From the NCBI GenBank assembly GCA_028718905.1, contig JAQUKV010000004.1, forward strand, positions 19,523-83,522: a stretch of 64,000 bases of DNA. The letters are read 5' to 3'. Below are positions 2,851 through 61,898 of the stretch, piece by piece. Numbering within the stretch: the first letter of the stretch is position 1; each line of letters starts with the position of its first letter. Source of the DNA: Candidatus Peribacteraceae bacterium (GTDB taxonomy: Bacteria; Patescibacteriota; Gracilibacteria; Peribacterales; Peribacteraceae). The notes under the pieces are model-generated. The model saw only the letters and a list, made by a program, of their open reading frames with translations, had not been told where the DNA came from and made no database searches. A program made the position numbers and the translations under genes.

Positions 2851-3534
2851 TCAGAGCAGCGGTGAGGCGATGAAGAGCAGTGCATGCATGGTGAAATTTA
2901 CGATACCGAAGACCCACGTCGACAGAATCGGAACATTGAGAAAGATGCCTGCGAGGATGAGGATGAGCAGGATCATGGGGCCGCGCTGCAGCAGGGTTTC
3001 GTACTGATCTTCATACTTGAGCGGGATGAAAATGTGCAGGATTTTCGATCCGTCGAGCGGAGCGATGGGAAGCAGATTGAAAGCCATTAATCCCAGGTTG
3101 ATGAAGACGGAGCTGCCGAGGATCTGCAGGAGCAATTGTTCGATCACCGGCCGGCCCCCGCCCACCAAGAGTAACCCGAACGCCGATCCGCTCACCTGTC
3201 CGTGCTGAAGGAGGATGAGCCCGAAGAAGGAAAGGCTCCCCAGCAAAAGATTACTGAGCGGTCCCGCAAGCGACACCAGGGCGGTATCCCGTCTCGGGTG
3301 ATGGAAGTACATGGGGTTCACCGGCACCGGCTTTGCCCAGCCGAATCCGACGATGAGGAACATCAGTGCTCCCATCAGGTCAATGTGGGCTATGGGGTTT
3401 AACGTCAGGCGTCCGGCGTTGTAAGCGGTGGGGTCGCCCAACCGTGTCGCCATCCAGCCGTGCGCGGCCTCGTGTACCGAGATCGCGATCAGAATGGAGA
3501 TGATGAACGGTGGACTGACGAAGCTGCTCAACAT
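2851..3534 (-). CDS. M50 (site-2 protease) family membrane metalloprotease
   Basis: ISVHEAAHGW (HExxH) and FNLLPIAPLDGSK motifs; ATG at 3534 chosen, the 190-aa upstream ORF extension is low-complexity and overlaps rpmB. Confidence 0.8.
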   Translation of the reverse strand: MLSSFVSPPFIISILIAISVHEAAHGWMATRLGDPTAYNAGRLTLNPIAHIDLMGALMFLIVGFGWAKPVPVNPMYFHHPRRDTALVSLAGPLSNLLLGSLSFFGLILLQHGQVSGSAFGLLLVGGGRPVIEQLLLQILGSSVFINLGLMAFNLLPIAPLDGSKILHIFIPLKYEDQYETLLQRGPMILLILILAGIFLNVPILSTWVFGIVNFTMHALLFIASPLL

Positions 3535-4265: not shown

Positions 4266-4405
4266 TCTGCCATTTCTTTGTCAGACGCGACAAAGAAATG
4301 GCGAAAGAAAACGCTGCGCCTATGACCTCCTCCGCTATCGCCGCCACATAGGCGCGTTTCCGGAGATTTTGTTTGTTTCTGTTCTGTGTGTGTTTGTTGT
4401 GTGGG
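4266..4405 (+). repeat. structured intergenic repeat family, copy R1 (short form)
   Basis: 14-bp hairpin 4269-4302, 9-bp closing helix GCGCCTATG/CATAGGCGC (4315-4323/4347-4355) around CCTCCTCCG, then T/G-rich tail 4365-4405. Confidence 0.7.
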
Positions 4406-5014: not shown

Positions 5015-5224
5015 GGAGGGATGGCCGAGTGGTTGAAGGCGCCCCGCACTTTCACATTTCACTGGTGGGATGGCCGAGTGGATGAAGGCGCGCGACTCGA
5101 AATCGCGTAACCCCAAAAAGGGTTCCAGGGTTCGAATCCCTGTCCCACCGCCACCAATGCGATCATGAAAGTGCGGGGTAGGCCTTCTTTACTCTCGAGG
5201 GTTCGAATCCCTCTCCCTCCGCCA
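5015..5224 (+). tRNA. interrupted type-II (Ser-like) tRNA scaffold hosting another tRNA in its anticodon arm
   Basis: Acceptor GGAGGGA/TCCCTCC, D arm GCC-GAGTGGTTGAA-GGC, T arm GAGGG-TTCGAAT-CCCTC, G+CCA; anticodon region replaced by 13-bp helix 5042-5054/5166-5178 enclosing 111 nt. Confidence 0.55.
5064..5153 (+). tRNA. tRNA-Ser (anticodon CGA), CCA encoded
   Basis: GGTGGGA/TCCCACC acceptor, anticodon arm CGCGA-CTCGAAA-TCGCG, long variable arm ACCC/GGGT, T arm CAGGG-TTCGAAT-CCCTG. Confidence 0.9.
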
Positions 5225-5406
5225 TCACGGGCACGCGACCGTTCTGCCTAAAGGCTACAAATTCACCGACATATCCAGGTTCGAATCTCTGTTCTATTCG
5301 CGAGCCGATAACTTCACAAATTGTACAAAATAGTCTATAATATAATTATGGAAGAAGGCACCCGATTGGGGCTTTATGGATTCAGAAATTTTTTCTCCTC
5401 ATTCAT

Positions 5407-5763
5407 ATGAATATCGACATCAGCCAGGAACCCACCCGCTTCGGCACCCTGCCCGTAGACGAACTCAAGCGCGGCATGCCGCAGAAAGTCATCGTCATTC
5501 GTACGTCGAGCGGCGAGGAAATCGCGCACGTCTTCCCGATGCACATCCAGCACATCGACGAAGTTCGGAAGATCCTCTCCTCGGGCGGGACGCTCGTTGC
5601 CGCTGGGGCGGTAGATACAGGCATGGCCGTGAGCGATGGCGGCCCTTTCGTCGGGTGGGATTCCAACACCTGCCGGGAAGCCCCCGAAATCGGCCACGAC
5701 CAACCGGTGAATCCAGCAGAATCCCAGCGCGTCGCGGCTGAGGTTGCGGAGAAAGTGCGGTAA
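5407..5763 (+). CDS. hypothetical protein (shares N-terminal domain with next gene)
   Basis: 118 aa; ELKRGMPQKVIVIRTSSGEEIAHVFPMH aligns with EELRAGMPQSIAVIRNQTGKEIAYIFPLH of 5813-7189. Confidence 0.6.
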   Translation: MNIDISQEPTRFGTLPVDELKRGMPQKVIVIRTSSGEEIAHVFPMHIQHIDEVRKILSSGGTLVAAGAVDTGMAVSDGGPFVGWDSNTCREAPEIGHDQPVNPAESQRVAAEVAEKVR

Positions 5764-5812
5764 ATACTCGCATCCCCCAAAGACCAGTGAATGAATCTAC
5801 TCCCATGGATCT

Positions 5813-7189
5813 ATGGACGTCGTCCTATCTTCAGAACTGAGCCACACAGGAAAGAATCCCGCAGAGGAGCTACGGGCGGGCATGCCGCAGAGCATAGCGG
5901 TGATACGGAACCAGACGGGGAAGGAAATCGCTTACATCTTCCCTCTTCACGTACCGCGCAAAGAGGAGACGGGATGTCTCCCATATGGAAAACTCGTCGG
6001 GCTCGGGACAATTGATACGGGCATTGGTGACAAAGGAGCGCCTCCGCTCATCGACTGGGAAGAGCCGCCCGAAGAGGAACAATTTGCTCGCATCACGCAG
6101 GATGCCGCGCAGGCTATTCAGGCTCTCTTGGTAAATGGCAAGGAGGGCTTCTCTGACTTCTACGAGACCCTCATTTCGCGACCGAAAAAGGCGAAGAAAC
6201 TCTCGCCACTCGACTCCTATATCGATCTCTCTGTTGTGATGGATGAGATCGTCAGCGCGAAGGAACGGGGAAAGGAATTTCAGTCCGGCGGACAGCGCCG
6301 ACAGATGCTCAGAGTGTTGCAAGGACGCTGGGATCGAAGCCTTCCTTTGGAAACAACATTTCTTGCTGCCGACGATTGTTCGCCTCGGCTTCGAAACGAG
6401 GCGAATCGCCTTGTGGAAGCGGCGCATGAGATACAGGAATTCCTCAAGCACTATCCGACGCCCGAACAAGCATTCGCGGCGCTCACGGGAAAAGAGCCGG
6501 AGGGGAAACTCCAGTGGACTATCCGTCCTTATGGAATCTGTTTCCTGACGTCCAAGCGTGAAGATGCCACGCGGTTCACGTCTCTCGGCATTTTCGGTCA
6601 CGGCGCCGCGATGGTGAAGTGCGAAGCGATGCCGGAGATGGGGAAGTACATTGCGGTCATCAACGCCGATCCTGAAATGCGGACAGTGGAGAATGAATCG
6701 GAGCAAGAGCGGAGAGAACGGGTGAAGTCGGATGTCGTTGGCGTTGAGCATGAACTCCTGCATCTCCGCACTGAGCGGCTTCTGGAAGCGAATCTCAACG
6801 AACGGAGAAAGGCGGTGAAAGATACCTACGGCGACGAGCGTTTCCTCCTTCTCTCCGGCTCGCCTCCGCTGGAACGCTGCGAACAGGTCTACGGAGACGT
6901 TGCTGACGCATACGCCAACTACAACGTCAAACACGAGCTCATCAGCTATATGACGTCTTCGCCCGAGCGCCTCCAGCACAGTGACATCTTCGACAGTGGT
7001 TCCTACGAAATGCCGGAGCCCTATCTCGTCTACGTGTACACATGCCCTCCTTACAACAAGAAGGAGGACAACGATCTTTTTATCGCGCAGAGGAAGAAAA
7101 TCGGGTGGCCCGAATGGCTCGACGAAAAAAATCACCGCTGGAATGGCGTGTTCGGGAGCGCTTGCAAGTCGTCCGCAGGAACGTGCTGA
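5813..7189 (+). CDS. hypothetical protein with HExxH motif
   Basis: 458 aa; paralogous N-domain to 5407-5763; VGVEHELLHL (HExxH); A7 run near 3' end links to next frame. Confidence 0.6.
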   Translation: MDVVLSSELSHTGKNPAEELRAGMPQSIAVIRNQTGKEIAYIFPLHVPRKEETGCLPYGKLVGLGTIDTGIGDKGAPPLIDWEEPPEEEQFARITQDAAQAIQALLVNGKEGFSDFYETLISRPKKAKKLSPLDSYIDLSVVMDEIVSAKERGKEFQSGGQRRQMLRVLQGRWDRSLPLETTFLAADDCSPRLRNEANRLVEAAHEIQEFLKHYPTPEQAFAALTGKEPEGKLQWTIRPYGICFLTSKREDATRFTSLGIFGHGAAMVKCEAMPEMGKYIAVINADPEMRTVENESEQERRERVKSDVVGVEHELLHLRTERLLEANLNERRKAVKDTYGDERFLLLSGSPPLERCEQVYGDVADAYANYNVKHELISYMTSSPERLQHSDIFDSGSYEMPEPYLVYVYTCPPYNKKEDNDLFIAQRKKIGWPEWLDEKNHRWNGVFGSACKSSAGTC

Positions 7190-7557
7190 TACCATACGCC
7201 GATGCCTACCATCGCATTGTAGAACTGTGGGATCTCGCCAAATCCTCGGGTATCGCCCCCAAAGAGATTGCCGATGTCATACTGGATTTCGAATTTCTCG
7301 AGATCCCTTCCGCGCTGGATCGCTTCATCCGCTCGAGAGCCGTCATCATCGATCAGTACACTCCGGAGAATATACGCCGTGTTCTACTCCAAGCCCTGCG
7401 ATATCAGACGCGCGGCATGCCAGTGGTCTTCCCGGGCAACAAGAAAACATACGACGAGTACGGCCAAGAAGAATTGCCCGAACGTCCGCGCGAGATCTTC
7501 ACGGCGAAGGAGATCAACGAAGGGATAAAGCTACCACGCAAAAAAGAAGCCGCATAG
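7114..7557 (+). CDS. hypothetical protein, -1 frame relative to 5813-7189 and overlapping it
   Basis: ATG 7114; overlaps upstream ORF by 76 nt across A7 tract 7125-7131. Confidence 0.5.
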   Translation: MARRKKSPLEWRVRERLQVVRRNVLIPYADAYHRIVELWDLAKSSGIAPKEIADVILDFEFLEIPSALDRFIRSRAVIIDQYTPENIRRVLLQALRYQTRGMPVVFPGNKKTYDEYGQEELPERPREIFTAKEINEGIKLPRKKEAA

Positions 7558-7795
7558 TCGGCACAGTTACAACCCCACAAAAAAATGCATACCCCAAACG
7601 AGTACAGTGAAAGCAACTCTCTACAGCCAGAGAAAACTCGGGATCTGACATCTGCGAAGCAACAGCTTCGCGAGGAGACTTCTAAGAAACTCAAACAGGG
7701 GATATGCTGACGACGTATGCTCCTGATGCGCGATACGCCATCTACTGCCAAAAGTGTTTCTGGGAGAATGTCGGCTGATCCCATAGAATTTTTCC

Positions 7796-8239
7796 ATGCC
7801 TCAGAAAAGGAAGTCTGAAATCCGCTTGGGGGATCGGGCTAGGGATGTAATCGACCGCCGCATCGCCAAAGACAAATCCCGCCTCATCGCACAGCTCAAG
7901 AAAAATCCGAGCATCCATCTCACATTCGAGAAGATCGGCATCGGCAGACGGACGTACTACCTCTGGCGGCAGGAGGACAGAACATTTGCCTCCTGCGCAG
8001 CCGAAGCGATCCGAGCCGCCATCGAACTCCGGAATGATTTCGCCGAATCGAAGCTCCTTGTCGGAATACGGAACGGCGACATGCGAGCAATCAAGTTCTG
8101 GCTCGGCCATCACCATTCTGCCTACGGCGCGAAGGTGAAAGTAGAGAGGACGATCAAAGAATCCGGCCTGACTCCGGAGCAAGAAGCGCAGATCCGGAAG
8201 GCTCTTCGTCTGGTCGGTATGGATGAAACCGGAAACTGA
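7796..8239 (+). CDS. helix-turn-helix protein, phage terminase-small-subunit/phBC6A51-like
   Basis: IGIGRRTYYLWRQEDRTFASCAAEAIRAA...LLVGIRNGDMRAIKFWL resembles phage HTH/small-terminase-type proteins (by eye). Confidence 0.45.
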   Translation: MPQKRKSEIRLGDRARDVIDRRIAKDKSRLIAQLKKNPSIHLTFEKIGIGRRTYYLWRQEDRTFASCAAEAIRAAIELRNDFAESKLLVGIRNGDMRAIKFWLGHHHSAYGAKVKVERTIKESGLTPEQEAQIRKALRLVGMDETGN

Positions 8240-8252
8240 TCCTCCGTAGCGC

Positions 8253-9020
8253 CTATCGCGCGAACTCTTTCAAGTATTTCCGGATCGCAGCCTCATCCGG
8301 CTTCTCGACATTCGTGATGTAGTAGTACTCCTTCAACAGGATCTGTTTCCCGTTTGCCTTCCGCAACGCTTCCATGATCAGATCGTCCGGCGCGGTGTCG
8401 ATGTGGATGAGGATGGTAAGGAGGATATGCCTCGTTCCGTACGACACCTTCTCGACCCGGGAATTCCATCGTTCGCACGCTTTCGCGAACGCCCGCTTCG
8501 CCGCAGTCCGGCCTTTCGCTTGCCACGAGCGGGAACCGTCGGTGCCGATCACGACGTAGTAGCGCAATTGCTGACCCAGCCCACCCGAAGGCCCCATGAT
8601 CATGCCGCCCTCGTCCTCGTCGAGCAGGTCCATCTCGAGATACATCCGGCATTCCTCCAGACAGAGGACGGCCCATCCCTTCAGAGCGGGATCCGGCTTC
8701 TTCAGGTACTTGCAGAGGAGATCAAAGCTGCGGATGGTGCCGATGTGCGCCAGGCGGAACAGGAGTTCCCGCTTTTCATCCAATGATACGTTCTTGCCAA
8801 AGAGGCGCTTGGCGGAATGCAGCGCTTCCGTTTCGCTGCTCTGTTTGCAGTCAATCTTCTCATGGTATTGGACGTACGCCTTCTGCTCAGCAACGGGAAC
8901 ACGGATATCCGAACGGGCGACGGCAAATTGCGCTGAAATGTCCTTCGGGGAGGAGGCCATAGGATCAGAGTATGCCATTGCCTGCCGCATCCGGACAGAG
9001 TCCTTCAAAAGGCTTCGCAT
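8253..9020 (-). CDS. hypothetical protein
   Basis: 255-aa ORF with protein-like composition, no motif recognised. Confidence 0.55.
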   Translation of the reverse strand: MRSLLKDSVRMRQAMAYSDPMASSPKDISAQFAVARSDIRVPVAEQKAYVQYHEKIDCKQSSETEALHSAKRLFGKNVSLDEKRELLFRLAHIGTIRSFDLLCKYLKKPDPALKGWAVLCLEECRMYLEMDLLDEDEGGMIMGPSGGLGQQLRYYVVIGTDGSRSWQAKGRTAAKRAFAKACERWNSRVEKVSYGTRHILLTILIHIDTAPDDLIMEALRKANGKQILLKEYYYITNVEKPDEAAIRKYLKEFAR

Positions 9021-9071
9021 CGCGGAATACGGCAGGATGACATTATCCGGCTATGCTTCTAGACTGTACGC

Positions 9072-9980
9072 GTGTCCACCCATGTCGCTCTCTTCGAAGG
9101 CAAGTCCATCCGCCGCCTCTGGAACGCAGAGGAGGAGCAGTGGTACTTCTCGGTTATCGATGTCGTCGGTGTTCTTTCGCAGAGCGATAATCCACAAGTG
9201 TACTGGCGGGTGCTCAAGAAACGGCTCATGGACGAAGGTTCCTCTGAAACCGTTACAAAATGTAACGCTTTGAAAATGCGGGCGGTGGACGGGAAAATGC
9301 GCATCACGGACTGCGCCACAACCGAGACGATGCTCCGTATCATTCAATCCATTCCCTCCCCCAACGCGGAGCCATTCAAGCTGTGGCTCGCGCGGGTCGG
9401 CCACGAGCGCATAGAGGAAATGCACGACCCGGAACTCGGCATCAAACGTGCGCTGAACATCTTCCGCAAGAAAGGCTACAGTGACAGCTGGATCAACCAG
9501 CGTCTGAAGAGCATCGAGGTGCGCAAGCTCCTCACCGACGAATGGGAGAAACGCGGCGTAAAGAGGAACGATGAATTCGCCATCCTCACGGATGACATCA
9601 CGCTTGCCTGGGCGGGAATGGCGACGGGGGAGTACAAACGGTTCAAGGGGCTCAGGAAGGAAAATTTGCGTGACAACATGACGAACCTCGAGCTCGTTCT
9701 GAACATGCTGGCCGAAACCGCGACGACGGAAATTTCGGAGAAGAGGGAACCGCAAACCTGGGAGGAAAACAGGAAAGTCGCGCGCGAGGGCGGCGGGATC
9801 GCCGGCAACGCTCGCAAGCAGATCGAGAAGAAGACGGGCAAGAAAGCCATAAGCCCGAAGAGGTTCGAGCCGACCCTTCGACAACGCTCAGGGTCTATCG
9901 CAGATCGCTCAGATACGAGTGGCATGGGTCGATCAGAGCGCGGTCGAAGAGCGAAGAACTCGGAATTGTCTACCGGATAG
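9072..9980 (+). CDS. BRO-N domain / DNA-damage-inducible protein D (DinD)-like
   Basis: FEGKSIRRLWNAEEEQWYFSVIDVVGVLSQSDNPQVYWRVLKKRL...DGKMRITDCA is the BRO-N/DinD signature. Confidence 0.7.
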   Translation: MSTHVALFEGKSIRRLWNAEEEQWYFSVIDVVGVLSQSDNPQVYWRVLKKRLMDEGSSETVTKCNALKMRAVDGKMRITDCATTETMLRIIQSIPSPNAEPFKLWLARVGHERIEEMHDPELGIKRALNIFRKKGYSDSWINQRLKSIEVRKLLTDEWEKRGVKRNDEFAILTDDITLAWAGMATGEYKRFKGLRKENLRDNMTNLELVLNMLAETATTEISEKREPQTWEENRKVAREGGGIAGNARKQIEKKTGKKAISPKRFEPTLRQRSGSIADRSDTSGMGRSERGRRAKNSELSTG

Positions 9981-9984
9981 ATCC

Positions 9985-11471
9985 CTACCAGCTATCCGTG
10001 AGCAGCCGGTTCTGCATGTCGAATGCCTTGCGGGCATCGCCCTCGGCGAGGAGAAGCGCCACCTGCTGCGAGAGGAGATACGTCAAATAGAAGCCGAGAA
10101 GATCCGGCCCCTTGTCCTTCTGCTTTTTGTAAAGGGGATGGTCGAGATTGATGAAGACGATGCCGCCATCGGTGAATGCCGCGGGTATCTCCTTTCCGCA
10201 GTGCTCGAGCGCGCAGGTGATGCCGACGCCGCCGACCATGATGCGTCGCGCGGTGATGCTCTTCCCCTTGAGGTCGCGGACGCGGATTTTCTTGGCGGGA
10301 GGTTCTTTCTGTTCGGCCTGCCGCGGCTCTCCCTGCGGAAGCATTTGCCCTCCTCCCGCGAGCATCTGGTACGCCGGGACCGTTCCCTCTTCTCCCGGGT
10401 ATGCCGAGGGCGCCATGGCTTCGGCATTCGATTCCTGCGCCGTCGGATCAATTTCCCCGGTCGGCGCTACCACCTGCGGCGCGATGTCGGGGTTGCGGCG
10501 GATCGCGCGGCGCATGCGAGAGAGGGAATCTTTGAGCGCCTCATCCGCCTTCCGTTCCTCCTTCTGCTTCGCGATCTCCCGCGTGAGGCGGTCCACGGCG
10601 TGTACTTCTTTGATCAGTACCGCGACGAAGGAACGGTACTCCGGCGTATCCGTGATGAAGCGCGTCCGGTCGCTCGTGATGGGGAGGAAGTCCGCCTCGA
10701 TCTTCCCCCGAAGTCGCATAACGATGGGCAGCTCGATGCCGAACGTAGAGCGGCAGACGACGACGCTGCGCACGACGCACTCGATCCCCATGGCGTCGCC
10801 CTTGGGGAAGTTGGGAAGGATGAGTTCGCCGTGGATGGGGCCGTAGGGTGTCATTGTGTTCACGGGAAAGCGCCTCCCGGAAACATGCACGGCTTCCAGC
10901 CGCTTGCCGTTGAGGAAGATCTGGAAGTGCGGCGCGTTCAGAGGAAGCCTTTCGCGGACATACCGTTCGATGTCCGGGAGCGTGAATGCGCGCTTGAGAC
11001 GCTCGAGGGTTACCGTGGTGCCGTCGGATGACTCCGGATCGAGCGGGAGCGGGATGAGCGGGATGCGCCAGGAGTCGCTTGCTCTCCAGTCACGCTTGTC
11101 GAAGACGATCTCCGCCGCGAAGTCGCTGCGTTGCGTGCGGAGCCGGAACCGATCGCATGCCGAGAGCACGGCGAATTTCCCGATGCCGAACTGGCCGATG
11201 CGGTGCCGCGGAAGCGCGGCGAGAGCGGCGCGATTTTCTTGTTCTGCGATCCGATGTTGAAGTACTCGCGCAGTCCCGCCTCATCCATTCCCCAGCCGTC
11301 GTCGCGGACGGAGAGCCGATCCGGCACCGCCTCGATCCACACGTTCTCCGCGTCGGCGTCGTAGGCGTTGGAGATGAGTTCTCGAAGAAGCTCGAGGCTC
11401 TCCCCGTAGAGCCTCTCCCCGATCGTCACGAGATGGGATTTGTCGAACCGGATCTGGATTTCATCGGGCAT
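9985..11471 (-). pseudogene. GHKL (HATPase_c_3-type) ATP-binding protein with one frame break
   Basis: N-part LRELISNAYDADAENVWIE...VRDDGWGMDEAGLREYFNIGSQNKK in one frame; RHRIGQFGIGKFAVLSA and the remaining 390 aa in another; switch within 11205-11240 at an A-run. Confidence 0.65.
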
Positions 11472-13853: not shown

Positions 13854-13952
13854 GCAGTAAGCAGACCGCAGTACGCAGTAAGCGATACCACCCAATGGCC
13901 TATACAGTGCTTACCGCTTTCTGCGTACTACTGCGCCGCTGTACTGCGCTTC
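13854..13952. repeat. heptamer stutter repeat, inverted arm pair (GCAGTAA/GCAGTAC units)
   Basis: GCAGTAA GCAGACC GCAGTAC GCAGTAA GCG vs complementary arm 13905-13952, which also encodes the last residues of prfB. Confidence 0.7.
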
Positions 13953-15087: not shown

Positions 15088-15181
15088 AAGCTATAAGACA
15101 TAAGCTGTAAGCGATAAGCGGCCAAGAAGATGCATGCGACTCGTGTTTATTGTTGCTTCTGTCTTACAGCTTATAGCTATT
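15088..15181. repeat. heptamer stutter repeat, inverted arm pair (ATAAGxx units)
   Basis: GCTATAA GACATAA GCTGTAA GCGATAA vs CTTACAGCTTATAGC arm; in divergent spacer prfB / 15261. Confidence 0.7.
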
Positions 15182-17370: not shown

Positions 17371-17447
17371 TAAGCAGTTCGTAGAACGCAGTACGCAGTA
17401 AGCTCGAGAAGTTATGCTTACTGCGTCATACGTACTGCTTACTACTG
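17371..17447. repeat. heptamer stutter repeat, inverted arm pair (CGCAGTA units)
   Basis: CGCAGTAAGC...GCTTACTGCG perfect 10-bp core, same unit family as 13854-13952. Confidence 0.7.
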
Positions 17448-18166: not shown

Positions 18167-18400
18167 TTTTCCACCTTTGTCGCGACAAAGCTTTGGCCAA
18201 AACGCCGGCGCGCCAACGCTCCTCCGCCTGGCCATGTGCTTCCTCGTCGGCTCCTACAAGGATTCGGAGCCGACTCGTCGGCATACTCGCGCACTTTTGC
18301 GTAACAAAAGTGCAGGGCATGGCTTTCCCCTTCACCCCCCGCCTGTCCGCCGTAGCCCGCATGGCGAAGGCGGATGTCGCGCCCCTCCCTTGCATCGCAA
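18167..18400 (+). repeat. structured intergenic repeat family, copy R2
   Basis: CTTTGTCGCGACAAAG, GGCGCGCCAACG, GGCTCC-11nt-GGAGCC, GCACTTTTG-5nt-CAAAAGTGC, CCCCTTCACCCCCC; lacks T/G tail. Confidence 0.7.
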
Positions 18401-24368: not shown

Positions 24369-25172
24369 ATGCGCATCGACATTCTTACGTTGTTTCCGGG
24401 CATGTTCACGGGTCCTCTGACCGAGAGCATTCTTGCGCGTGCGTCCACCTTCGTCCCGCAGGGCGGGACTACGGCGGACAGGCAGAACGAGAAACCGATG
24501 CAGATACATCTGCATGATCTTCGCGCATTCGGGCGCGGCAAATATCATCAGGTGGACGACTCACCGTACGGCGGCGGGGCGGGGATGGTGATGCGGGCGG
24601 ATGTGATTGTGCCGGCACTGGAGACAGTTGTTGCCGAAGGTATGGGGGGGAAGGGAGGCGTGGAAGGTCAGGAAGGACAGGAAAGTAAGGGAGGCGTGGA
24701 AGGTCAGGAAGGACAGAAAGGAAAGAAAAGAAATATAGGAAATAGAGGAGAACCGTGGAGGATCTATTTTTCACCGAGGGGCAAAAAGCTCACGCAGACG
24801 AAGGTGGAGAAACTGGCCAAGCGTGATTGGCTGGTCTTGCTCTGCGGGCATTACGAGGGGATTGATCAGCGCATCATCGACGGCGGGTGGATCGATGAGG
24901 AAATCAGCATCGGCGATTACGTGCTCACGGGCGGCGAACTTCCGGCTATGGTGCTCATTGATGCCGTCGCCCGGCAGATCCCCGGCGTGCTCGGCAAAGA
25001 TGAGTCGGCGGAAGAAGAGAGTTTCTCATCTTCCCTTGGCCGCAAGAAGGAATATCCCCACTACACGCGGCCGGAGATATTTGAGGGGCTCAAAGTGCCG
25101 GATGTGCTCCTGTCGGGGAATCATAAGGAGATTGAGAAGTGGAGGAAGGAGCGGGTAGGTGGCAAGGGATGA
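24369..25172 (+). CDS. trmD: tRNA (guanine37-N1)-methyltransferase with low-complexity insert
   Basis: MRIDILTLFPGMF, DDSPYGGGAGMVM, LLCGHYEGIDQR, ISIGDYVLTGGELPA. Confidence 0.85.
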   Translation: MRIDILTLFPGMFTGPLTESILARASTFVPQGGTTADRQNEKPMQIHLHDLRAFGRGKYHQVDDSPYGGGAGMVMRADVIVPALETVVAEGMGGKGGVEGQEGQESKGGVEGQEGQKGKKRNIGNRGEPWRIYFSPRGKKLTQTKVEKLAKRDWLVLLCGHYEGIDQRIIDGGWIDEEISIGDYVLTGGELPAMVLIDAVARQIPGVLGKDESAEEESFSSSLGRKKEYPHYTRPEIFEGLKVPDVLLSGNHKEIEKWRKERVGGKG

Positions 25173-27003: not shown

Positions 27004-27048
27004 GGGGTGCCACTCTATCAGAGGGAGGAGGGGGAGGCGAATGAGTTT

Positions 27049-27282
27049 CTTCCACCTTTGTCCGAGCGACAAAGGTGGAGCCCAGCCTTCGTCCCGCAGA
27101 TGCGGGACTACGGCCGGCAGGCAAAACGCGTGCGCGCCAATCCCCGCTCCACTCGGCCCTGCGCCTCCTCGCTGGCTCCTCCAAGGTTTCGGAGCCGACT
27201 CGTCGGCGACCCGCTTCGCGGCAGGGCCTCCCCCTTCACCCCCGATGGCGCGCCCTCCATGTTTTCTGTTTTGTATGTTTTA
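27049..27282 (+). repeat. structured intergenic repeat family, copy R3 (most complete)
   Basis: 12-13-bp hairpin 27050-27080, extra hairpin GTCCCGCAGATGCGGGAC, GCGCGCCA/TGGCGCGC closing helix, GGCTCC-11nt-GGAGCC, CCGC-TTCG-GCGG, CCCCCTTCACCCCC, T/G tail. Confidence 0.75.
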
Positions 27283-28026
27283 TTGTCTTGGTGCGGATTT
27301 TCCGAAACGGAGCACGAGCAGCGGAAAGATCACCACGGCCCTCCAGATTCTGCCGATTCTGCGGGGTTCCCTCATCAGGCGCCAGAGCCATTCGAGGCCG
27401 AGGCGCTGCATCCGGATCGGGGCGCGCTGTCGTTTTCCGGCGAGAAAATCGAATGTGCCCCCGACGCCCACTGCCACGCGCACGGATGGCATTTCTTGCA
27501 GATGTTTTGCGATCCACAGGTCCTGCGCGGGGGCACCGAAGGCGACGAGGAGCAGGTGCGGGGCAGCCGCGCGAATCATTGCAAGAATCGTCGGTGCATC
27601 CTCTTCCCGCGGGCTCCCCGCAAAGCATCCGACGATTTTCAAACGCGGATTATTTTTGAGGAGCACGCTGGCCGCTGCTTCGGCAATGCCGGGTTGCGCA
27701 CCCAACAGGAACACGGGCGCTTCTTTCGTGAGTGAGGCGCATAGAGCCGTGACCGTGTCTACTCCTGTCACACGCTCAGGGAGACGCTGCCCCGTGAGCC
27801 GTGCCATCCACACGAGGCCGGTGGAGTCGGGGATATTCAAATCCGTTTCGTTCAGGAGCGCCCGGAAGTCCGCATTGTGTGCCGTCTCCATCAGCATTTC
27901 ATTGTTCGGCGTCATGATATGTCTCTGTTTTTCCTCTCGCAGAAAACCACGGATCATTTCCAGAGCTCCCGTCCGGGTGACGGCATCAATCGATACGCCG
28001 AGGAGGAAGACGCGGGATGAAGACAT
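27280..28026 (-). CDS. WecG/TagA/CpsF-family (GT26) glycosyltransferase
   Basis: IMTPNNEMLMETAHNADFRALLNETDLNIPDSTGLVW; alternative ATG 28047 lies inside the heptamer tract. Confidence 0.8.
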   Translation of the reverse strand: MSSSRVFLLGVSIDAVTRTGALEMIRGFLREEKQRHIMTPNNEMLMETAHNADFRALLNETDLNIPDSTGLVWMARLTGQRLPERVTGVDTVTALCASLTKEAPVFLLGAQPGIAEAAASVLLKNNPRLKIVGCFAGSPREEDAPTILAMIRAAAPHLLLVAFGAPAQDLWIAKHLQEMPSVRVAVGVGGTFDFLAGKRQRAPIRMQRLGLEWLWRLMREPRRIGRIWRAVVIFPLLVLRFGKSAPRQ

Positions 28027-28082
28027 AAGTTTTAAGACATAAGACATAAGCTTTAAGCTTACGGCTTATAGCTTACAGCTTC
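28019..28082. repeat. heptamer stutter repeat, inverted arm pair (TAAGACA / TAAGCTT units)
   Basis: TAAGACA TAAGACA TAAGCTT TAAGCTT ACGGCTT ATAGCTT ACAGCTT. Confidence 0.75.
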
Positions 28083-30076: not shown

Positions 30077-31426
30077 ATGAAGGAAATCATCTACCGTTCC
30101 GCTCGCTTCTTTGACGAGGTGGCCGCTCATCCCTCGAAGCACGTTCATCTGATCCTCATCGCAACCAAGCCCGACATCATCAAGCAGCTGCCGCTGTATT
30201 TCGAATTGAAAAAGCGCGGGCATCTTGTGCTCCTCGGCCACACGGGGCAGCACTACAGCGAAAACCTGAGTGGCGGCATGCTCAAGGAGTATGGCGTCGA
30301 GCCCGACTTCAACCTGAATGTACGCGGAGTGATGCACGAGATCGTGAGCCAGATCATCGGACGGCTCGGTTTTGTGATCGGAGAGCTGAAGGAGAGAGGG
30401 AAGACCGTTATCCCCTATGTGCACGGTGACACGACCACGGCCATGGCGGCGAGCAACGCGGGGTTCGCGCACGGGTGTGCCTCGGTGCATGTGGAGGCGG
30501 GTATTCGCACGCTGACGCCGAATTATAGGGATTGGGGATTGGGGATTGGGGATTGGGACGATCAGAAATGCGGAGAGTGGAGGAAATTCCTCATGGGCAG
30601 AAAAAACTGGGAGCGGGGGAGTCTGGAGCCGTATCCCGAGCAGTTCAATACGCGCTGCAGTGAGGCCGCAACCGGCGTGCATCTAGCGCCTGTGGAGTTA
30701 GATCGGGAGTTTTTGCAGAGTGAAGGGTTTCCGGACGATCGCATTTTCGTCGTGGGCAATTCCGTAGTCGATGCAGTGGAGGAGGCAAAGGGGCGCATGA
30801 AACAATCCACCGTGTTCGAGCGCTATCCGCTCCTTGCAGACGGTGACTTCGTTCGCTTCTGCATCCATCGGCGTGAGAATTGCGGATCGGATACCCGCTT
30901 CAAGTCGATCTACGATGCCATGGTCTCGCTCATCAAGGACGGCCGGAACGTGCTCCTCATCACGATGACGCAGACGGAGCGTGCATTCGAGCGGATGGGA
31001 CTGAAGAAGGATGTCGAAGCGCTCGCCAAGAAGCACAAGAACTTTCTCTACTCGCCGGTGTGGCCGGAGTATGTGGATGTGATGGCGGCCATGGCCAAAG
31101 CCGCCGTGTGCGCCACCGATTCCGGATCCATGCAGGAGGAGATGAATGCGATGGCGATTCCGTGCGTCACACTCCGCTTCGGGTCTGACCGCAGCGAGTC
31201 GGCCATGGCGGGAGGCAACCTGATCGCGCCACCCACGGATGCCCGAGCTATCAAGCAAATCATCGAGTATGCGTGGGGCAACAAGGATATGAAGAAGGCG
31301 CCGAAGCTTTATGGCAGGAATGTCAGTGCCCAGTGCATCGACGCGGTGGAGAAGGTTTTGGAGAACGGGGATGTGTTTCGAACGGAGGAGGAACGGTTGG
31401 GTAAACGAGGGGGAATGAGGAATTAA
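30077..31426 (+). CDS. UDP-N-acetylglucosamine 2-epimerase-like protein with repeat-encoded insert
   Basis: TKPDIIKQLPLY, VHGDTTTAMA, HVEAGIRT, then ~40-aa insert, then EPYPEQFNTR. Confidence 0.75.
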   Translation: MKEIIYRSARFFDEVAAHPSKHVHLILIATKPDIIKQLPLYFELKKRGHLVLLGHTGQHYSENLSGGMLKEYGVEPDFNLNVRGVMHEIVSQIIGRLGFVIGELKERGKTVIPYVHGDTTTAMAASNAGFAHGCASVHVEAGIRTLTPNYRDWGLGIGDWDDQKCGEWRKFLMGRKNWERGSLEPYPEQFNTRCSEAATGVHLAPVELDREFLQSEGFPDDRIFVVGNSVVDAVEEAKGRMKQSTVFERYPLLADGDFVRFCIHRRENCGSDTRFKSIYDAMVSLIKDGRNVLLITMTQTERAFERMGLKKDVEALAKKHKNFLYSPVWPEYVDVMAAMAKAAVCATDSGSMQEEMNAMAIPCVTLRFGSDRSESAMAGGNLIAPPTDARAIKQIIEYAWGNKDMKKAPKLYGRNVSAQCIDAVEKVLENGDVFRTEEERLGKRGGMRN

Positions 31427-31504
31427 GAATTATGAATTATGACTTAAACTAACGGGGCTGCCCATTCGTCCTTGATTCTTCATTCCAAATTCATAATTCT
31501 AAAT
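31413..31504. repeat. heptamer stutter repeat, inverted arm pair (GAATTAT units)
   Basis: GAATGAG GAATTAA GAATTAT GAATTAT GACTTAA vs complementary arm 31471-31504. Confidence 0.75.
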
Positions 31505-38541: not shown

Positions 38542-38617
38542 GGGATTGGGGATTGGTCTATTAGGGATTAGGGCTGTTTTTTTGTATCCCAATTCCCAAT
38601 AACTAATCCCTCATCCC
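38541..38617. repeat. heptamer stutter repeat, inverted arm pair (GGGATTx units)
   Basis: GAGGGAT TGGGGAT TGGTCTA TTAGGGA TTAGGGC - T-run - CCCAATTCCCAATAACTAATCCCTCATCCC. Confidence 0.75.
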
Positions 38618-43122: not shown

Positions 43123-43177
43123 GTAGGATTAGGGCGTAGGATTAGGGCGTAGGGTTAGGGTGTAGGGCGCAGGGATT
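43123..43177. repeat. G/T/A stutter repeat (TAGGATTAGGGCG units), single arm
   Basis: TAGGATTAGGGCG TAGGATTAGGGCG TAGGGTTAGGGTG TAGGGCGCAGGGATT directly upstream of def start. Confidence 0.7.
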
Positions 43178-43816: not shown

Positions 43817-43878
43817 GGGAGCCGACTATACCCGAACGGAGGATGGGAGCGAGGGAGTGGGCTTGACGGAGAAGTCGT

Positions 43879-43906
43879 GAGTTTTGAGTTATGAGTTTTG
43901 AGTATT
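43879..43906. repeat. heptamer stutter repeat (GAGTTTT units)
   Basis: GAGTTTT GAGTTAT GAGTTTT GAGTATT, overlaps the annotated nth start. Confidence 0.65.
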
Positions 43907-44577: not shown

Positions 44578-44828
44578 CTTTCTTCTTTCTCTGTCTGCCC
44601 GACAGAGAAAGAAGCAAAGAGAGCGCACCGCGCGCCAATCCCCCTCCACCCGGCCCTGTGCCTCCTCGCCACGCCTCCAAGGCTTCGGCTCGTCTCGTCG
44701 GCGCTCCCCGCTTTCGCGGGGCAGGGCCTTCCCCTTCACCCCCAGTGGCGCGCGGAGCCTCCAACATAGACTGTTTGCTGTTTTCTGTTTGTGTTTTTTG
44801 TATTGGTGAGTTGTTTGTTGTTTTTTTA
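44578..44828 (+). repeat. structured intergenic repeat family, copy R4
   Basis: 14-bp hairpin 44582-44614 (CTTCTTTCTCTGTC/GACAGAGAAAGAAG), CCGCGCGCCA/TGGCGCGCGG closing helix, CCCCGC-TTTC-GCGGGG, CCCCTTCACCCCC, long T/G tail. Confidence 0.75.
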
Positions 44829-44851: not shown

Positions 44852-45598
44852 ATGGCGGCCGATCTGCTCCATATCCTGCGTTCCATCGGTTTAGATGAGA
44901 AGGAATCTGCGCTCTACCTTGCTGGTCTCTCACTCGGATCCGCGCCCGCTTCGTCGTATTCCAAAGCCGCGAAACTCAATCGTATCACCGCGTACAACAC
45001 GCTGGAGGGGCTGGCGCGGCGGGGTCTTCTCACCGTTTCGCGCAAGGTGCGTGCCAAGTGGTACCAGCCGGTGCCGCCGGAGCATCTGGCCATCGAGGCG
45101 CGCAAGAGTGCCGATGCCCTGCAGCGTGTCCTTCCGGAACTGCGCAGTCTTCAGGGCAAGGACCATCGGCGTCCGGTGATCCGGTTCTTCGAAGGCTGGG
45201 AAGGCGTGCGGCGCGTCTACGAAGACACCCTTACCGCCCGCAGCGAGCTTCTGAACTTTGCCAACTCCGCCGTGGTCCGGCATTTCTGGCCACACTATGA
45301 CGAGGAATACGTCACCGAGCGCGTGCGTCGCAGAATACGACTTCGGGGGATCGCCCCTGATGATGAGGCGGGCCGCAAAGTGCATGGAGAAGACCGCAAG
45401 CGCCTCCGCGAAATCCGACTCGTCCCTTCCAAAGATTTCGACTTTCGAAACGAAATCAACATTTACGATCACAAGGTGGCGATTTGCTCATTCGGCTCTG
45501 CCGATCACGTGTTCGGCGTGATTATCGAAAGCGTCGAAGTGGCCGAGACGCAACGGCAGATCTTCGAAATGGCGTGGCGGTATGCAAAGAGTTTGTAG
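44852..45598 (+). CDS. TrmB-family transcriptional regulator
   Basis: LGLDEKESALYLAGLSLGSAPASSYSKAAKLNRITAYNTLEGLARRGLL winged-helix N-terminus. Confidence 0.7.
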   Translation: MAADLLHILRSIGLDEKESALYLAGLSLGSAPASSYSKAAKLNRITAYNTLEGLARRGLLTVSRKVRAKWYQPVPPEHLAIEARKSADALQRVLPELRSLQGKDHRRPVIRFFEGWEGVRRVYEDTLTARSELLNFANSAVVRHFWPHYDEEYVTERVRRRIRLRGIAPDDEAGRKVHGEDRKRLREIRLVPSKDFDFRNEINIYDHKVAICSFGSADHVFGVIIESVEVAETQRQIFEMAWRYAKSL

Positions 45599-45616
45599 CT
45601 GGTAGCTTGTAGCTGG
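45595..45616. repeat. heptamer stutter repeat (GTAGCTG units)
   Basis: GTAGCTG GTAGCTT GTAGCTG G, first unit supplies the TAG stop of the TrmB-like gene. Confidence 0.6.
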
Positions 45617-56292: not shown

Positions 56293-56356
56293 TTAGGGAT
56301 TGGGGATTGGAATATTAGGGATTGGGGGGGGTAGGGTGTTGGGCGTAGGGCGTAGG
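56293..56356. repeat. G/T/A stutter repeat (GGGATTG / TAGGGCG units), single arm
   Basis: TTAGGGATTGGGGATTGG...GGGCGTAGGGCGTAGG fills the whole spacer between secD start and the upstream gene stop. Confidence 0.7.
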
Positions 56357-58048: not shown

Positions 58049-58183
58049 TTAGGGAACTAGGGAACTTGGGAAATAGGGAAATAAGGAACTTGGGAAATAG
58101 GGAACGAGACATTTCTCATGTCATTCTCAGCATTCCCTCCCATTTCTCTCCTTCCCGAGTCCCCGATTTCCCTCGTTCCCTAT
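58049..58183. repeat. 7-9-nt stutter repeat, long inverted arm pair (GGGAACT/GGGAAAT units)
   Basis: arm 58049-58108 purine-rich, arm 58131-58183 complementary pyrimidine-rich; abuts stop codon at 58186. Confidence 0.75.
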
Positions 58184-59005: not shown

Positions 59006-59073
59006 GCTTAAGACTTAAGACAAAAGCTATAAGACATAAGCTTACAGTTTACAGTTTACAGTTTACAGCTTCG
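59006..59073. repeat. heptamer stutter repeat, inverted arm pair (CTTAAGA / TTTACAG units)
   Basis: CTTAAGA CTTAAGA CAAAAGC TATAAGA CATAAGC then TTACAGT x3. Confidence 0.75.
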
Positions 59074-61663: not shown

Positions 61664-61898
61664 GTTTCCACCTTTGTCGCGACAAAGGTGGAGCCAAAAC
61701 GCTGGCGCGCCAACGCCCCTCCGCCCGGCCCTGCGCCTCCTCGTCGGATCCTCCACGGCTTCGGATCCGCCTCGTCGGCCCCACTTATTCCGCGGAATAA
61801 GCGGTAGCAGGGCCTGCCCCTTCACCCCCCGTGCCGCCCCCCATCCCGTATGTTGTTTTGTTTGTTTCTGTTCGGTTGGTATTTGCTGTTTCTTTTCG
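61664..61898 (+). repeat. structured intergenic repeat family, copy R5
   Basis: Palindrome TCCACCTTTGTCGCGACAAAGGTGGA 61667-61692, GGCGCGCCAACG, GGATCC-11nt-GGATCC, CTTATTCCGCGGAATAAG, CCCCTTCACCCCCC, T/G tail. Confidence 0.75.

Follow-up and report, generated by a model that had tools for sequence, protein, structure and literature searches.

What kind of folded sequence recurs five times, always on the same strand, in a 64-kb stretch of Candidatus Peribacteraceae DNA (hereafter the window), and does it act as RNA or as DNA? A preliminary description of this DNA had offered two answers, a candidate noncoding RNA and a non-autonomous element moved as a single strand. We find that the family is a previously undescribed folded repeat of Peribacteria, placed between unrelated genes. 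It is a lineage-specific, non-coding, interspersed repeat of these CPR bacteria and lies outside every named family.

The copies were located with a covariance model (R1), which was run over both strands of the window with its filters off. Exactly five copies were recovered, all on the + strand and at the places that had been described, and the arms of P1, the closing helix and P2 and the P3 hairpins read as they had been quoted. The minus-strand matches of the model in the window were to the palindromic P1 hairpin only. A weak match at 47372-47454 was rejected as a copy, as it is an unrelated GC-rich hairpin cluster. The core motif of the family, GCAGGGC-N3-9-CCCCTTCACCCCC, occurs 4 times in the window compared to 0.00 expected. 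The P1 apex TTTGTC..GACAAAG is found at 4 sites (8 matches over both strands) compared to 0.01 expected.

The focal copy, copy 3, spans 27048-27292 including its T/G-rich tail and scores 133-137 bits with the covariance model. All of its parts are on the + strand. It begins with a 12-bp hairpin, P1, which reads TCCACCTTTGTC-CGAGC-GACAAAGGTGGA (27051-27079) and was assigned from sequence and fold. A nested mini hairpin of type a, which folds alone, is inserted in the forward direction (27083-27122) at the junction GGAGCC|AAAACGC, and a different hairpin is inserted at this same junction in a relative (L104:6207). The linker AAAACGC (27123-27129), in nearly invariant alignment columns, leads to the 5' arm of the closing helix P0, GCGCGCCA (27132-27139), whose partner lies at 27246-27253. 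Next comes the 5' junction strand ATCCCCGCTCCACTC, with its C-rich CTCC motif (27140-27154; family alignment), and then GGCCCTG (27155-27161), the proposed 5' strand of a helix Px with the partner CAGGGCC at 27222-27228. Helix P2a, GCC/GGC (27163-27165/27205-27207; family alignment), is separated by a 5x5 internal loop, TCCTC/TCGTC (within 27163-27207), from P2, GGCTCC/GGAGCC (27174-27179/27191-27196), which carries the 11-nt loop TCCAAGGTTTC. The variable hairpin P3, CCGC-TTC-GCGG, occupies 27211-27221. It is followed by CAGGGCC and the near-invariant 3' junction strand TCCCCCTTCACCCCCGA (27222-27245), which form the most conserved block of the family, and by the P0 3' arm TGGCGCGC with a terminal CCTCCA (27246-27259). 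The T/G-rich tail, with a period of ~7 nt (27260-27292), overlaps the stop codon of a minus-strand gene of the WecG family (27280-28047). The C-rich single strand of the preliminary description is present, but part of it can pair: GGCCCTG may do so with CAGGGCC, and GCC pairs with GGC.

The other four copies, also on the + strand, vary this plan. Copy 1 (4268-4405; sequence and covariance model, 36.8 bits, E 1e-7) is a short form. Its P1 (4269-4282/4289-4302), the linker GAAAGAAAACGC (4303-4314) and the closing helix TGCGCCTATG/CATAGGCGC (4315-4324/4347-4355) were read from the sequence; the helix encloses a 22-nt C-rich loop, and a T/G tail runs from ~4366 to 4405. Copy 1 lacks Px, P2 and P3, and 85 model positions are deleted, so that it is an internal-deletion form that retains P1, the linker and the closing helix. 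Comparison of folds revealed a similar short form in a relative (L092:6714-6834). Copy 2 (18167-18389; sequence and covariance model, 115.5 bits) has a P1 whose 3' arm is partly degenerate, the P3 hairpin GCACTTTTG-CGTAA-CAAAAGTGC and the closing 3' arm ATGTCGCGCC (18374-18383). It also has a nested mini hairpin of type a in the reverse direction, on the minus strand (18341-18373; nhmmer, E 4e-5), between the strand CCCCTTCACCCCCC and the 3' arm of the closing helix. Copies 2 and 3 owe their extra length to these nested insertions of ~33-40 nt. Copy 4 (44581-44828; sequence and covariance model, 147.8 bits) has a class C P1 (44582-44595/44601-44614), the closing helix CCGCGCGCCA/TGGCGCGCGG (44628-44637/44746-44755), the P3 hairpin CCCCGC-TTTC-GCGGGG and a tail (44771-44828). 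Copy 5 (61664-61898; 152.9 bits, with P0 mismatches flagged by the covariance model) has P1 at 61668-61691, a closing 5' arm at 61704-61712, P2 as GGATCC/GGATCC, P3 as CTTATTCCG/CGGAATAAG and a tail that extends to about 61898. The compensatory change reported for the closing helix is seen in these copies, but the 3' arm of copy 5, TGCCGCCC, is degenerate. A T/G tail is present in most copies, as described, but copy 2 has none, and among relatives the tail is confined to the clade closest to the window.

Small repeats of other kinds accompany the family. Nested hairpin insertions within its copies measure 25-45 nt, and intergenic heptamer arrays are ubiquitous in the same genomes. Together they suggest an unusually active, unreported small-repeat biology in Peribacteria.

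To see how far the family extends, the core motif was scanned over the GTDB species-representative genomes, which gave at least 110 loci. About 70 of these are in metagenome-assembled genomes (MAGs) of Candidatus Peribacteria, Peribacteraceae or Peregrinibacteria, and the others are single chance matches in high-GC genomes. Among the matches listed, the family is seen only in Candidatus Peribacteria/Peregrinibacteria MAGs. A search with nhmmer and then with model R1 found 78 matches in 550 kb from ~18 MAGs, with at least 21 copies in UBA11694 alone, and the copy number is ~80-100 per 1.25-Mb genome. The G+C content of the window (0.54-0.62 in 2-kb windows) resembles the value for Ca. Peribacter riflensis, whose genome has 1.248 Mb, 58.5% G+C and no CRISPR (PMC4736985). 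The paper on that genome does not mention the repeat (PMC4736985), and our literature search on Peribacteria, Peregrinibacteria, Patescibacteria and CPR found no account of it. No match to the core motif was found in the viral contigs of IMG/VR.

The preliminary description had allowed that the copies might be fragments of a known Rfam family, but no Rfam 15 family matched. With the gathering threshold, the whole window gave only a tRNA-Ser. Scans of copies 3 and 5 and of two L090 copies at E<=10 gave chance-level matches well below the gathering scores, and none covered the element as a whole.

The fold was assessed in 58 copies from ~18 genomes, which were aligned with MAFFT without structural information. 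The element is ~190 nt long and its order, from 5' to 3', is a T-rich run of 3-5 nt, P1, the linker, the P0 5' arm, the body, the P0 3' arm and CCnCC. P1 has 11-14 bp and the apex TTTGTC..GACAAA, and the linker after it reads (AGCC)AAAACGC. P0 occurs in three complementary classes, the self-complementary GGCGCGCC, CTCCGCCGCC/GGCGGCGGAG and CCGCGCGCC/GGCGCGCGG. The P0 5' arm is followed by the C-rich 5' junction strand and GGCCCTG. GCC/GGC of P2a, which flanks the TCCTC/TCGTC internal loop, is replaced by GTC/GAC in 11 copies, and the 11-nt loop of P2 reads TCCAAGGATTC. On the 3' side of P3 lie CAGGGCC and the near-invariant TTCCCCTTCACCCCCCGT. Conservation sets in only 3-5 nt upstream of P1, and similarity stops after CCnCC, so that the conserved region reaches ~10 nt beyond P0.

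Complementarity was found in 91.3% of cells, compared to 81.2% in shuffled alignments (0 of 500 shuffles were as high) and 37-54% with the partners slid. The covariation score of this structure-blind alignment was 0.291 versus 0.126, and 25 pairs have changed on both sides. Double changes affect 9 of 13 pairs in P1, 9 of 12 in P0 and 6 of 9 in P2. The fold is therefore under selection, and the compensatory change noted in the window holds across the family. The GGCCCTG/CAGGGCC columns of Px are almost invariant, with 0 double changes and an uncompensated C-A in 5 copies; Px is an unproven helix because near-invariant columns give no two-sided change. P3 is a variable, dispensable hairpin: there are 49 distinct sequences among 64 copies, 52 of the 64 form a hairpin, some loops are C(UUCG)G, and P3 is essentially absent from the G01 and ERP119705 lineages. 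Two further structures were considered and dropped by eye. In a pseudoknot between the P2 loop and CCUU, variant loops such as that of copy 5 are uncompensated, and for a G-quadruplex or i-motif over the two C-rich strands, the 5' strand is without C-tracts in several lineages.

A selected fold raises the question of which molecule folds. One explanation is that the copies are multicopy, independently transcribed structured small RNAs with the + strand as the sense strand. Their C-rich loops would find partners in G-rich targets, for instance in Shine-Dalgarno regions, and they would be co-oriented with replication as highly expressed genes are, which thereby escape head-on collisions with the fork. 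The strong covariation of three helices and the conservation of unpaired strands and loops are as in functional RNAs, and this explanation also draws on the C(UUCG)G loops and on the U-rich tail 3' of the closing helix in the clade of the window. Most lineages are without that tail, however. Conservation begins only 3-5 nt before P1, and there is accordingly no conserved promoter. Scans for sigma-70-like promoters and for intrinsic terminators (a G+C hairpin with a T run) at copies 3, 4 and 5 found none, and clear TGnTATAAT boxes occur elsewhere in these genomes. P1 itself has T before it and A after it. For either strand, the RNA fold is more stable than those of shuffled sequences (z = -3.0 and -4.0). 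This agrees with an RNA gene, but fold stability does not separate RNA from DNA.

Base pairing offers another view of the same question. G:U exceeds A:C by little in the helices overall (85 versus 73) and is the rarer of the two in well-defined pairs (22 versus 33), and the balance is unchanged by strand or by the direction of the flanking operon. With ~50 informative cells, the missing excess of G:U argues weakly against selection for folding of one strand as RNA and is consistent with pairing at the DNA level. A further point against an RNA gene is that ~80-100 copies in a 1.25-Mb genome, among them truncated, deleted and insertion-bearing ones, would be unusual for one, and the failure to match Rfam points the same way. 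Overall, we regard a family of small RNA genes as unlikely, and the earlier proposal of a candidate noncoding RNA found no support in the upstream conservation, the promoter and terminator scans, the G:U counts or the gene arrangements that follow.

The ten genes beside the window copies are unrelated housekeeping genes. They encode an RF-1 domain protein, a nitroreductase, L20, NIF3, a DsbA-like protein, WecG, endonuclease III, TrmB, an RNA methyltransferase and an AP endonuclease. Clustering of the flanking proteins found no multi-copy gene family adjoining the copies and no partner. The element has no coding capacity and no neighboring partner gene. For the rest, the window is ordinary chromosome with a small phage-like island.

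For the family as a whole, flanking genes were called by a program based on codon usage, for which these loci had served as the training set. The arrangements <E<, >E>, >E< and <E> (E being the element) were found 18, 16, 13 and 13 times (chi-square p = 0.75), and the fraction of co-oriented genes in the loci was 0.50. These counts bear on a cis-acting transcript element, that is, a riboswitch or leader, a terminator, or a stabilizer of mRNA in the 3' UTR like REP/ERIC. The copies do fill short intergenic spacers, often at 25 nt or less from a stop codon, and their hairpins are very stable. Yet the four arrangements are equally common, 13 copies lie between divergent promoters, and the flanking genes share no function. 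For a riboswitch or leader, we found no constant position or orientation and no shared pathway of the neighbors. The arrangements, together with the absence of promoters and terminators in our scans of copies 3, 4 and 5, exclude a riboswitch, leader or terminator and make an independent RNA gene less likely.

Orientation relative to replication was examined through GC skew, which was calculated over 8-kb loci oriented by the element, with the element itself removed. Positive values were obtained for 47 of 63 loci (p = 1.2e-4) and for 37 of the 43 loci with |skew| of at least 0.03 (p = 1.6e-6). On the long contigs of UBA11694 and STB_179, the + strand coincides with the G-rich strand for 25 of 29 copies, and copies occur in extended runs of the same orientation. 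The cumulative skew of the window rises, and all five copies are on its + strand. This link is not a by-product of composition because the + strand of the element is itself C-rich. Orientation follows GC skew and not genes. The strand bias noted in the preliminary description is therefore real, and it takes the form that single-strand mobilization predicts. It also largely refutes a cis-acting transcript element, as orientation tracks replication rather than transcription, and we consider this explanation highly improbable.

In most bacteria, G exceeds C on the leading strand. If the same is true here, the element's + strand falls on the lagging-strand template. Positive skew probably does mark the leading strand in these genomes, and the skew plot of Ca. 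P. riflensis has the expected form (PMC4736985). An orientation that follows replication and not the reading of genes looks like that of a single-strand DNA element, not of a small-RNA gene. The small-RNA explanation can nevertheless claim the same observation, with the + strand on the presumed leading strand in ~85% of cases. The bias could also have arisen by selection, either through co-directional transcription or against a lagging-strand template that carries the G-rich complement. A KOPS/SRS-like reading of GTGAAGGG on the complement was dropped, as its polarity is opposite to expectation.

Comparison of related genomes provided information on how the copies are inherited. Copy 2 shares its orthologous position with L104:6207-6481 and L004:6581-6776, and copy 3 is orthologous to L008:2162-2353; the genes that flank orthologous sites are only 72-84% identical. 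Orthologous copies are no closer to each other than paralogs are. Copy 3 is 84% identical to its ortholog in L008 and 86% identical to copy 5, while the L004 copy is 81% identical to its ortholog, copy 2, and 92% identical to a paralog in L096. Orthologous copies are 76-84% identical in all, compared to up to 98% for copies within a genome, and in divergent MAGs copies have their nearest neighbor among the paralogs of their own genome. Some signature changes are genome-specific and common to all paralogs, as in the G01 MAG. Copies therefore evolve in concert within genomes.

The family is not uniform in every respect. Subfamilies defined by P1, P0 and P3 coexist inside one genome, and 5'-truncated, 3'-truncated and internal-deletion copies exist. 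The presence of copies differs between UBA11694 and STB_179 or STD1_181, always together with other changes in the spacer. A comparison of filled and empty sites among relatives, whose intergenic spacers differ wholesale, found no clean empty site, fixed target or defined cleavage ends.

Retention at orthologous sites whose flanks are 72-84% identical fits an element that is retained by the host as well as a mobile one. The copies might be host-domesticated DNA that is not currently mobile and serves as a structured binding site. A protein of replication, recombination or the nucleoid would read this site on the lagging-strand template, and selection and gene conversion would keep the copies of each genome uniform. 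Such a role would agree with the retention and the greater likeness of copies within genomes, with the orientation that follows replication, and with persistence in reduced genomes of 1.2 Mb. The near-invariant unpaired motifs, namely CCCCTTCACCCCC and TCCAAGGATTC in the loop of P2, point to recognition of specific sequences, and the signatures carried by all paralogs of the G01 MAG look as if the copies were co-evolving with one protein. Against a domesticated site stand the tolerance of truncated, internally deleted and insertion-riddled copies, the differences in presence or absence between close relatives and the several structural subfamilies inside one genome, and no candidate protein is known. 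We consider a domesticated site unlikely, though it is partly compatible with the explanation we prefer and the two are not mutually exclusive.

The explanation we prefer, tentatively and at a little under an even chance, is a REP/PATE-like repeat, non-autonomous, whose folded and active form would be single-stranded DNA of the lagging-strand template and on which a putative partner enzyme would act. The repeat is modular, with the P1 hairpin and the AAAACGC linker followed by the body closed by P0. The body comprises the two conserved C-rich junction strands, P2 and the variable P3. The element would act at the DNA level, with its + strand on the lagging-strand template and transiently single-stranded at the replication fork. 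The hairpins may fold there and be recognized by an enzyme acting in trans, which would copy, move or homogenize the element by the logic of IS200/IS605-derived PATEs and of REP/RAYT elements. The folded species is probably single-stranded DNA and not RNA, and a putative enzyme would mobilize the element.

Genes for such an enzyme were searched for in two ways. A Pfam search of the window found no HUH/Y1 transposase, RAYT, reverse transcriptase or integrase. A tblastn search with two TnpA queries found none in ~550 kb of Peribacteria DNA, which covers at most ~15% of any genome. The queries work, since both matched an IS200-like gene in an unrelated Meiothermus locus. Membership in IS200/IS605, to whose mobilization the preliminary description had likened the strand bias, is not evident: the element has only one terminal hairpin, and no Y1 transposase was seen in the DNA sampled.

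Among free-standing genomes, those of CPR bacteria rank with the smallest known. In the Peribacteria, this one repeat family nonetheless makes up ~1-2% of a 1.25-Mb genome and keeps its fold across the group. It is a clean new case for studying the spread of structured repeats through reduced genomes and their continued uniformity there. It bears on whether HUH-type single-strand mobilization operates in CPR, and on whether the host can make use of a DNA structure with replication-linked polarity. A bolder form of the latter idea, to which we give little credence, is that the element is not selfish at all but a host-maintained part of ~190 nt peculiar to Peribacteria. It would fold on the lagging-strand template or as + strand RNA, and its near-invariant C-rich strands would recruit a host factor. 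If this were true, the copies would act throughout these minimal genomes as a replication-polar signal that serves priming, recombination/repair or the organization of the chromosome. To our knowledge, replication-polar signals have so far been known only as words of 5-8 nt (Chi, KOPS) or as single-copy origins of plasmids and phages. On the practical side, the repeat breaks assemblies, as several MAG contigs end inside copies, and it is usable as a lineage marker with a covariance model ready.

How does the element compare with known systems? It was first set against classical MITEs, and its ends (T-rich/P1 versus CCnCC) are not inverted repeats, with no flanking duplication; a replication-linked orientation is also not expected of MITEs. 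For a group II intron or ribozyme retroelement, there is no Rfam match and no reverse transcriptase domain in the window. The ERIC repeats of enterobacteria and the bcr1 repeats of the Bacillus cereus group are closer in kind. They too are intergenic repeats, of the 125-155-nt class, with stable predicted folds, compensatory substitutions and variants that carry internal insertions or deletions, and a genome has tens to a hundred copies. Each is essentially one long imperfect palindrome, however, and bcr1 has a TTTAT duplication. Neither has sequence similarity to our element, which belongs to a different phylum (CPR), and we know of no report of replication-direction dependence for either.

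REP/BIME (REPIN) sequences share with the element their abundance as intergenic palindromic repeats, compensatory changes, homogenization within genomes, a modular or mosaic organization and a presumed trans-acting HUH enzyme. They differ in that REPs are single hairpins of 20-40 nt with a 5' GTAG, usually in inverted pairs. Our element has ~190 nt, 4-5 helices, long conserved unpaired strands and no GTAG, and it occurs singly, in one orientation per replichore. Since it fails the tests for Rfam families, REP/BIME, MITEs, riboswitches and terminators, it is not a member of a named family.

PATEs are short, non-coding, structured elements that are mobilized by the Y1 HUH TnpA and act on one DNA strand. 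They have no terminal inverted repeat (TIR) or evident target-site duplication (TSD), a hairpin near the end and a strong bias in orientation to replication. The element resembles them in being short, non-coding and structured, in showing no TIR or evident TSD, in having P1 near one end and in its replication bias. Unlike a PATE, it has a single terminal hairpin, P1, 3-5 nt from its 5' boundary, and its 3' end is the closing-helix arm with CCnCC and no P1-like hairpin. Where a PATE has a fixed target of 4-5 nt on its 5' side, the element has only a T-rich run: the 5' flanks of copies (TTTT, TCTT, TTTG, TATG) are merely T-rich, with no TSD or TIR seen. Its body contains several helices inside a long-range closing helix, and no TnpA was found in the sampled Peribacteria DNA. 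Judged by the PATE criteria, orientation bias is the only one found in the element, assuming that G exceeds C on the leading strand.

A last comparison is with single-strand origins and initiation signals on single-stranded DNA, among them the sso of rolling-circle plasmids, ssi and the minus-strand origins of phages G4 and M13. These are non-coding sequences of 130-300 nt that function in only one orientation to replication, and their single-stranded DNA, like the proposed fold of the element, forms several hairpins with short conserved unpaired motifs. The motifs RS_B and CS-6 are not seen in the element, and the origins are single-copy features of plasmids and phages, whereas the repeat described here is a dispersed chromosomal family.

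The main repeat, the ~190-nt folded interspersed repeat of Peribacteria, hosts nested hairpin insertions of only 25-45 nt, which occupy several sites within it and can face either way. Within the window, one lies on the + strand in the third copy (27083-27122) and one on the - strand in the second (18341-18373). Among loci from other genomes that bear the main-repeat motif, mini hairpins were found at L102:1112-1146, L068:7694-7725 and L032:3642-3673. Type a, the form of both window insertions, has the sequence GCCTTCG-hairpin-CTACGGCCGGCAGGC, and L104 carries a related form, CGCCCG...TACGGGCGGGCG. Type b, CCTTCGWCARGCTCAGGRCAGGC, was found at L054:7119-7143, L065:1690-1713 and 5072-5094, and L031:5594-5617, and three times within a single main-repeat copy of L023 (4097-4121, 4138-4161 and 4277-4301). 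Two mini hairpins present in L098 (3416-3450 and 3520-3548) are absent from its near-identical relative L101, and some mini hairpins are located beyond the main repeat. Possibly, the mini hairpins are an ultra-small mobile element in their own right.

Since contigs of several MAGs begin or finish inside a main-repeat copy (L010, L029, L033, L050, L073 and L110), the repeat evidently breaks short-read assemblies, and MAG copy numbers are therefore underestimates.

Three clustered G+C-rich hairpins downstream of the DHFR gene (47363-47460), CCCCTCCCCC-GGA-GGGGGAGGGG, CCTTCCCCC-ACT-GGGGGAAGG and GCCTGCCTGCC-GGCAGGCAGG, give a weak match (15.9 bits) to R1, the covariance model of the main repeat, but do not belong to the main-repeat family. 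A tandem 9/18/36-nt repeat of the GGAAGGTCA type (24636-24749; 97% identity for the 36-nt unit) sits within the predicted TrmD (tRNA m1G methyltransferase) ORF at 24369-25172, upstream of the start of the Pfam domain match (residue 121); an essential gene may here have gained an in-frame repeat expansion. After the tRNA-Ser(cga) gene (5064-5153) come a duplicate tRNA 3' end (5195-5227) and then ~6 kb of ORFs, most of them without a Pfam match (about 5400-11200). In this stretch, the ORF at 7796-8239 is terminase-small/HTH-like and that at 9072-9980 encodes a BRO-N protein (phrog_15286, E 6e-115). AT skew also changes across this region, which is probably an integrated phage-like island.

The window also contains many short tandem arrays of 7-nt units (8-nt in one), including those at 13854-13880, 15088-15120, 17374-17400, 28020-28081, 30528-30557, 31420-31447, 38542-38556, 43130-43174, 43878-43903, 45595-45616, 47363-47386, 56296-56356, 58050-58105 and 59007-59068. 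The unit varies from spacer to spacer (GGGATTG, GCAGTAC, AAGACAT, TAGGGCG, TTACAGT and others). Most arrays either occupy the space between tandem genes or have a start codon 4-60 nt away, and 17 of the 19 tandem arrays in the window are intergenic. Relatives have heptamer arrays as well, for example CCATTTT in L056, and the main repeat's own T/G tail has the look of such an array. The arrays in the window resemble the STRR heptamers of cyanobacteria.

In the Peribacteria genomes UBA11694 and STB_179, several main-repeat copies have another repeat of ~30 nt, GTCGTACCACGGCGGCTCGCAGRGCGCCG, on their 3' side at a distance of 10-60 nt. This repeat and its P1-like fusion were located at L076:~1975-2005, L032, L064 (~2010-2040 and 3380-3420), L021 and L105 and, on the - strand, at L065:1737-1851 and L064:3246-3279. 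At one site, GTCGTACCACGGCGGCTCGCAGRGCGCCG takes the place of the usual body and is joined to a P1-like hairpin and linker. This fusion suggests a mosaic make-up for the Peribacteria repeats, with modules that can be exchanged, as in BIMEs.
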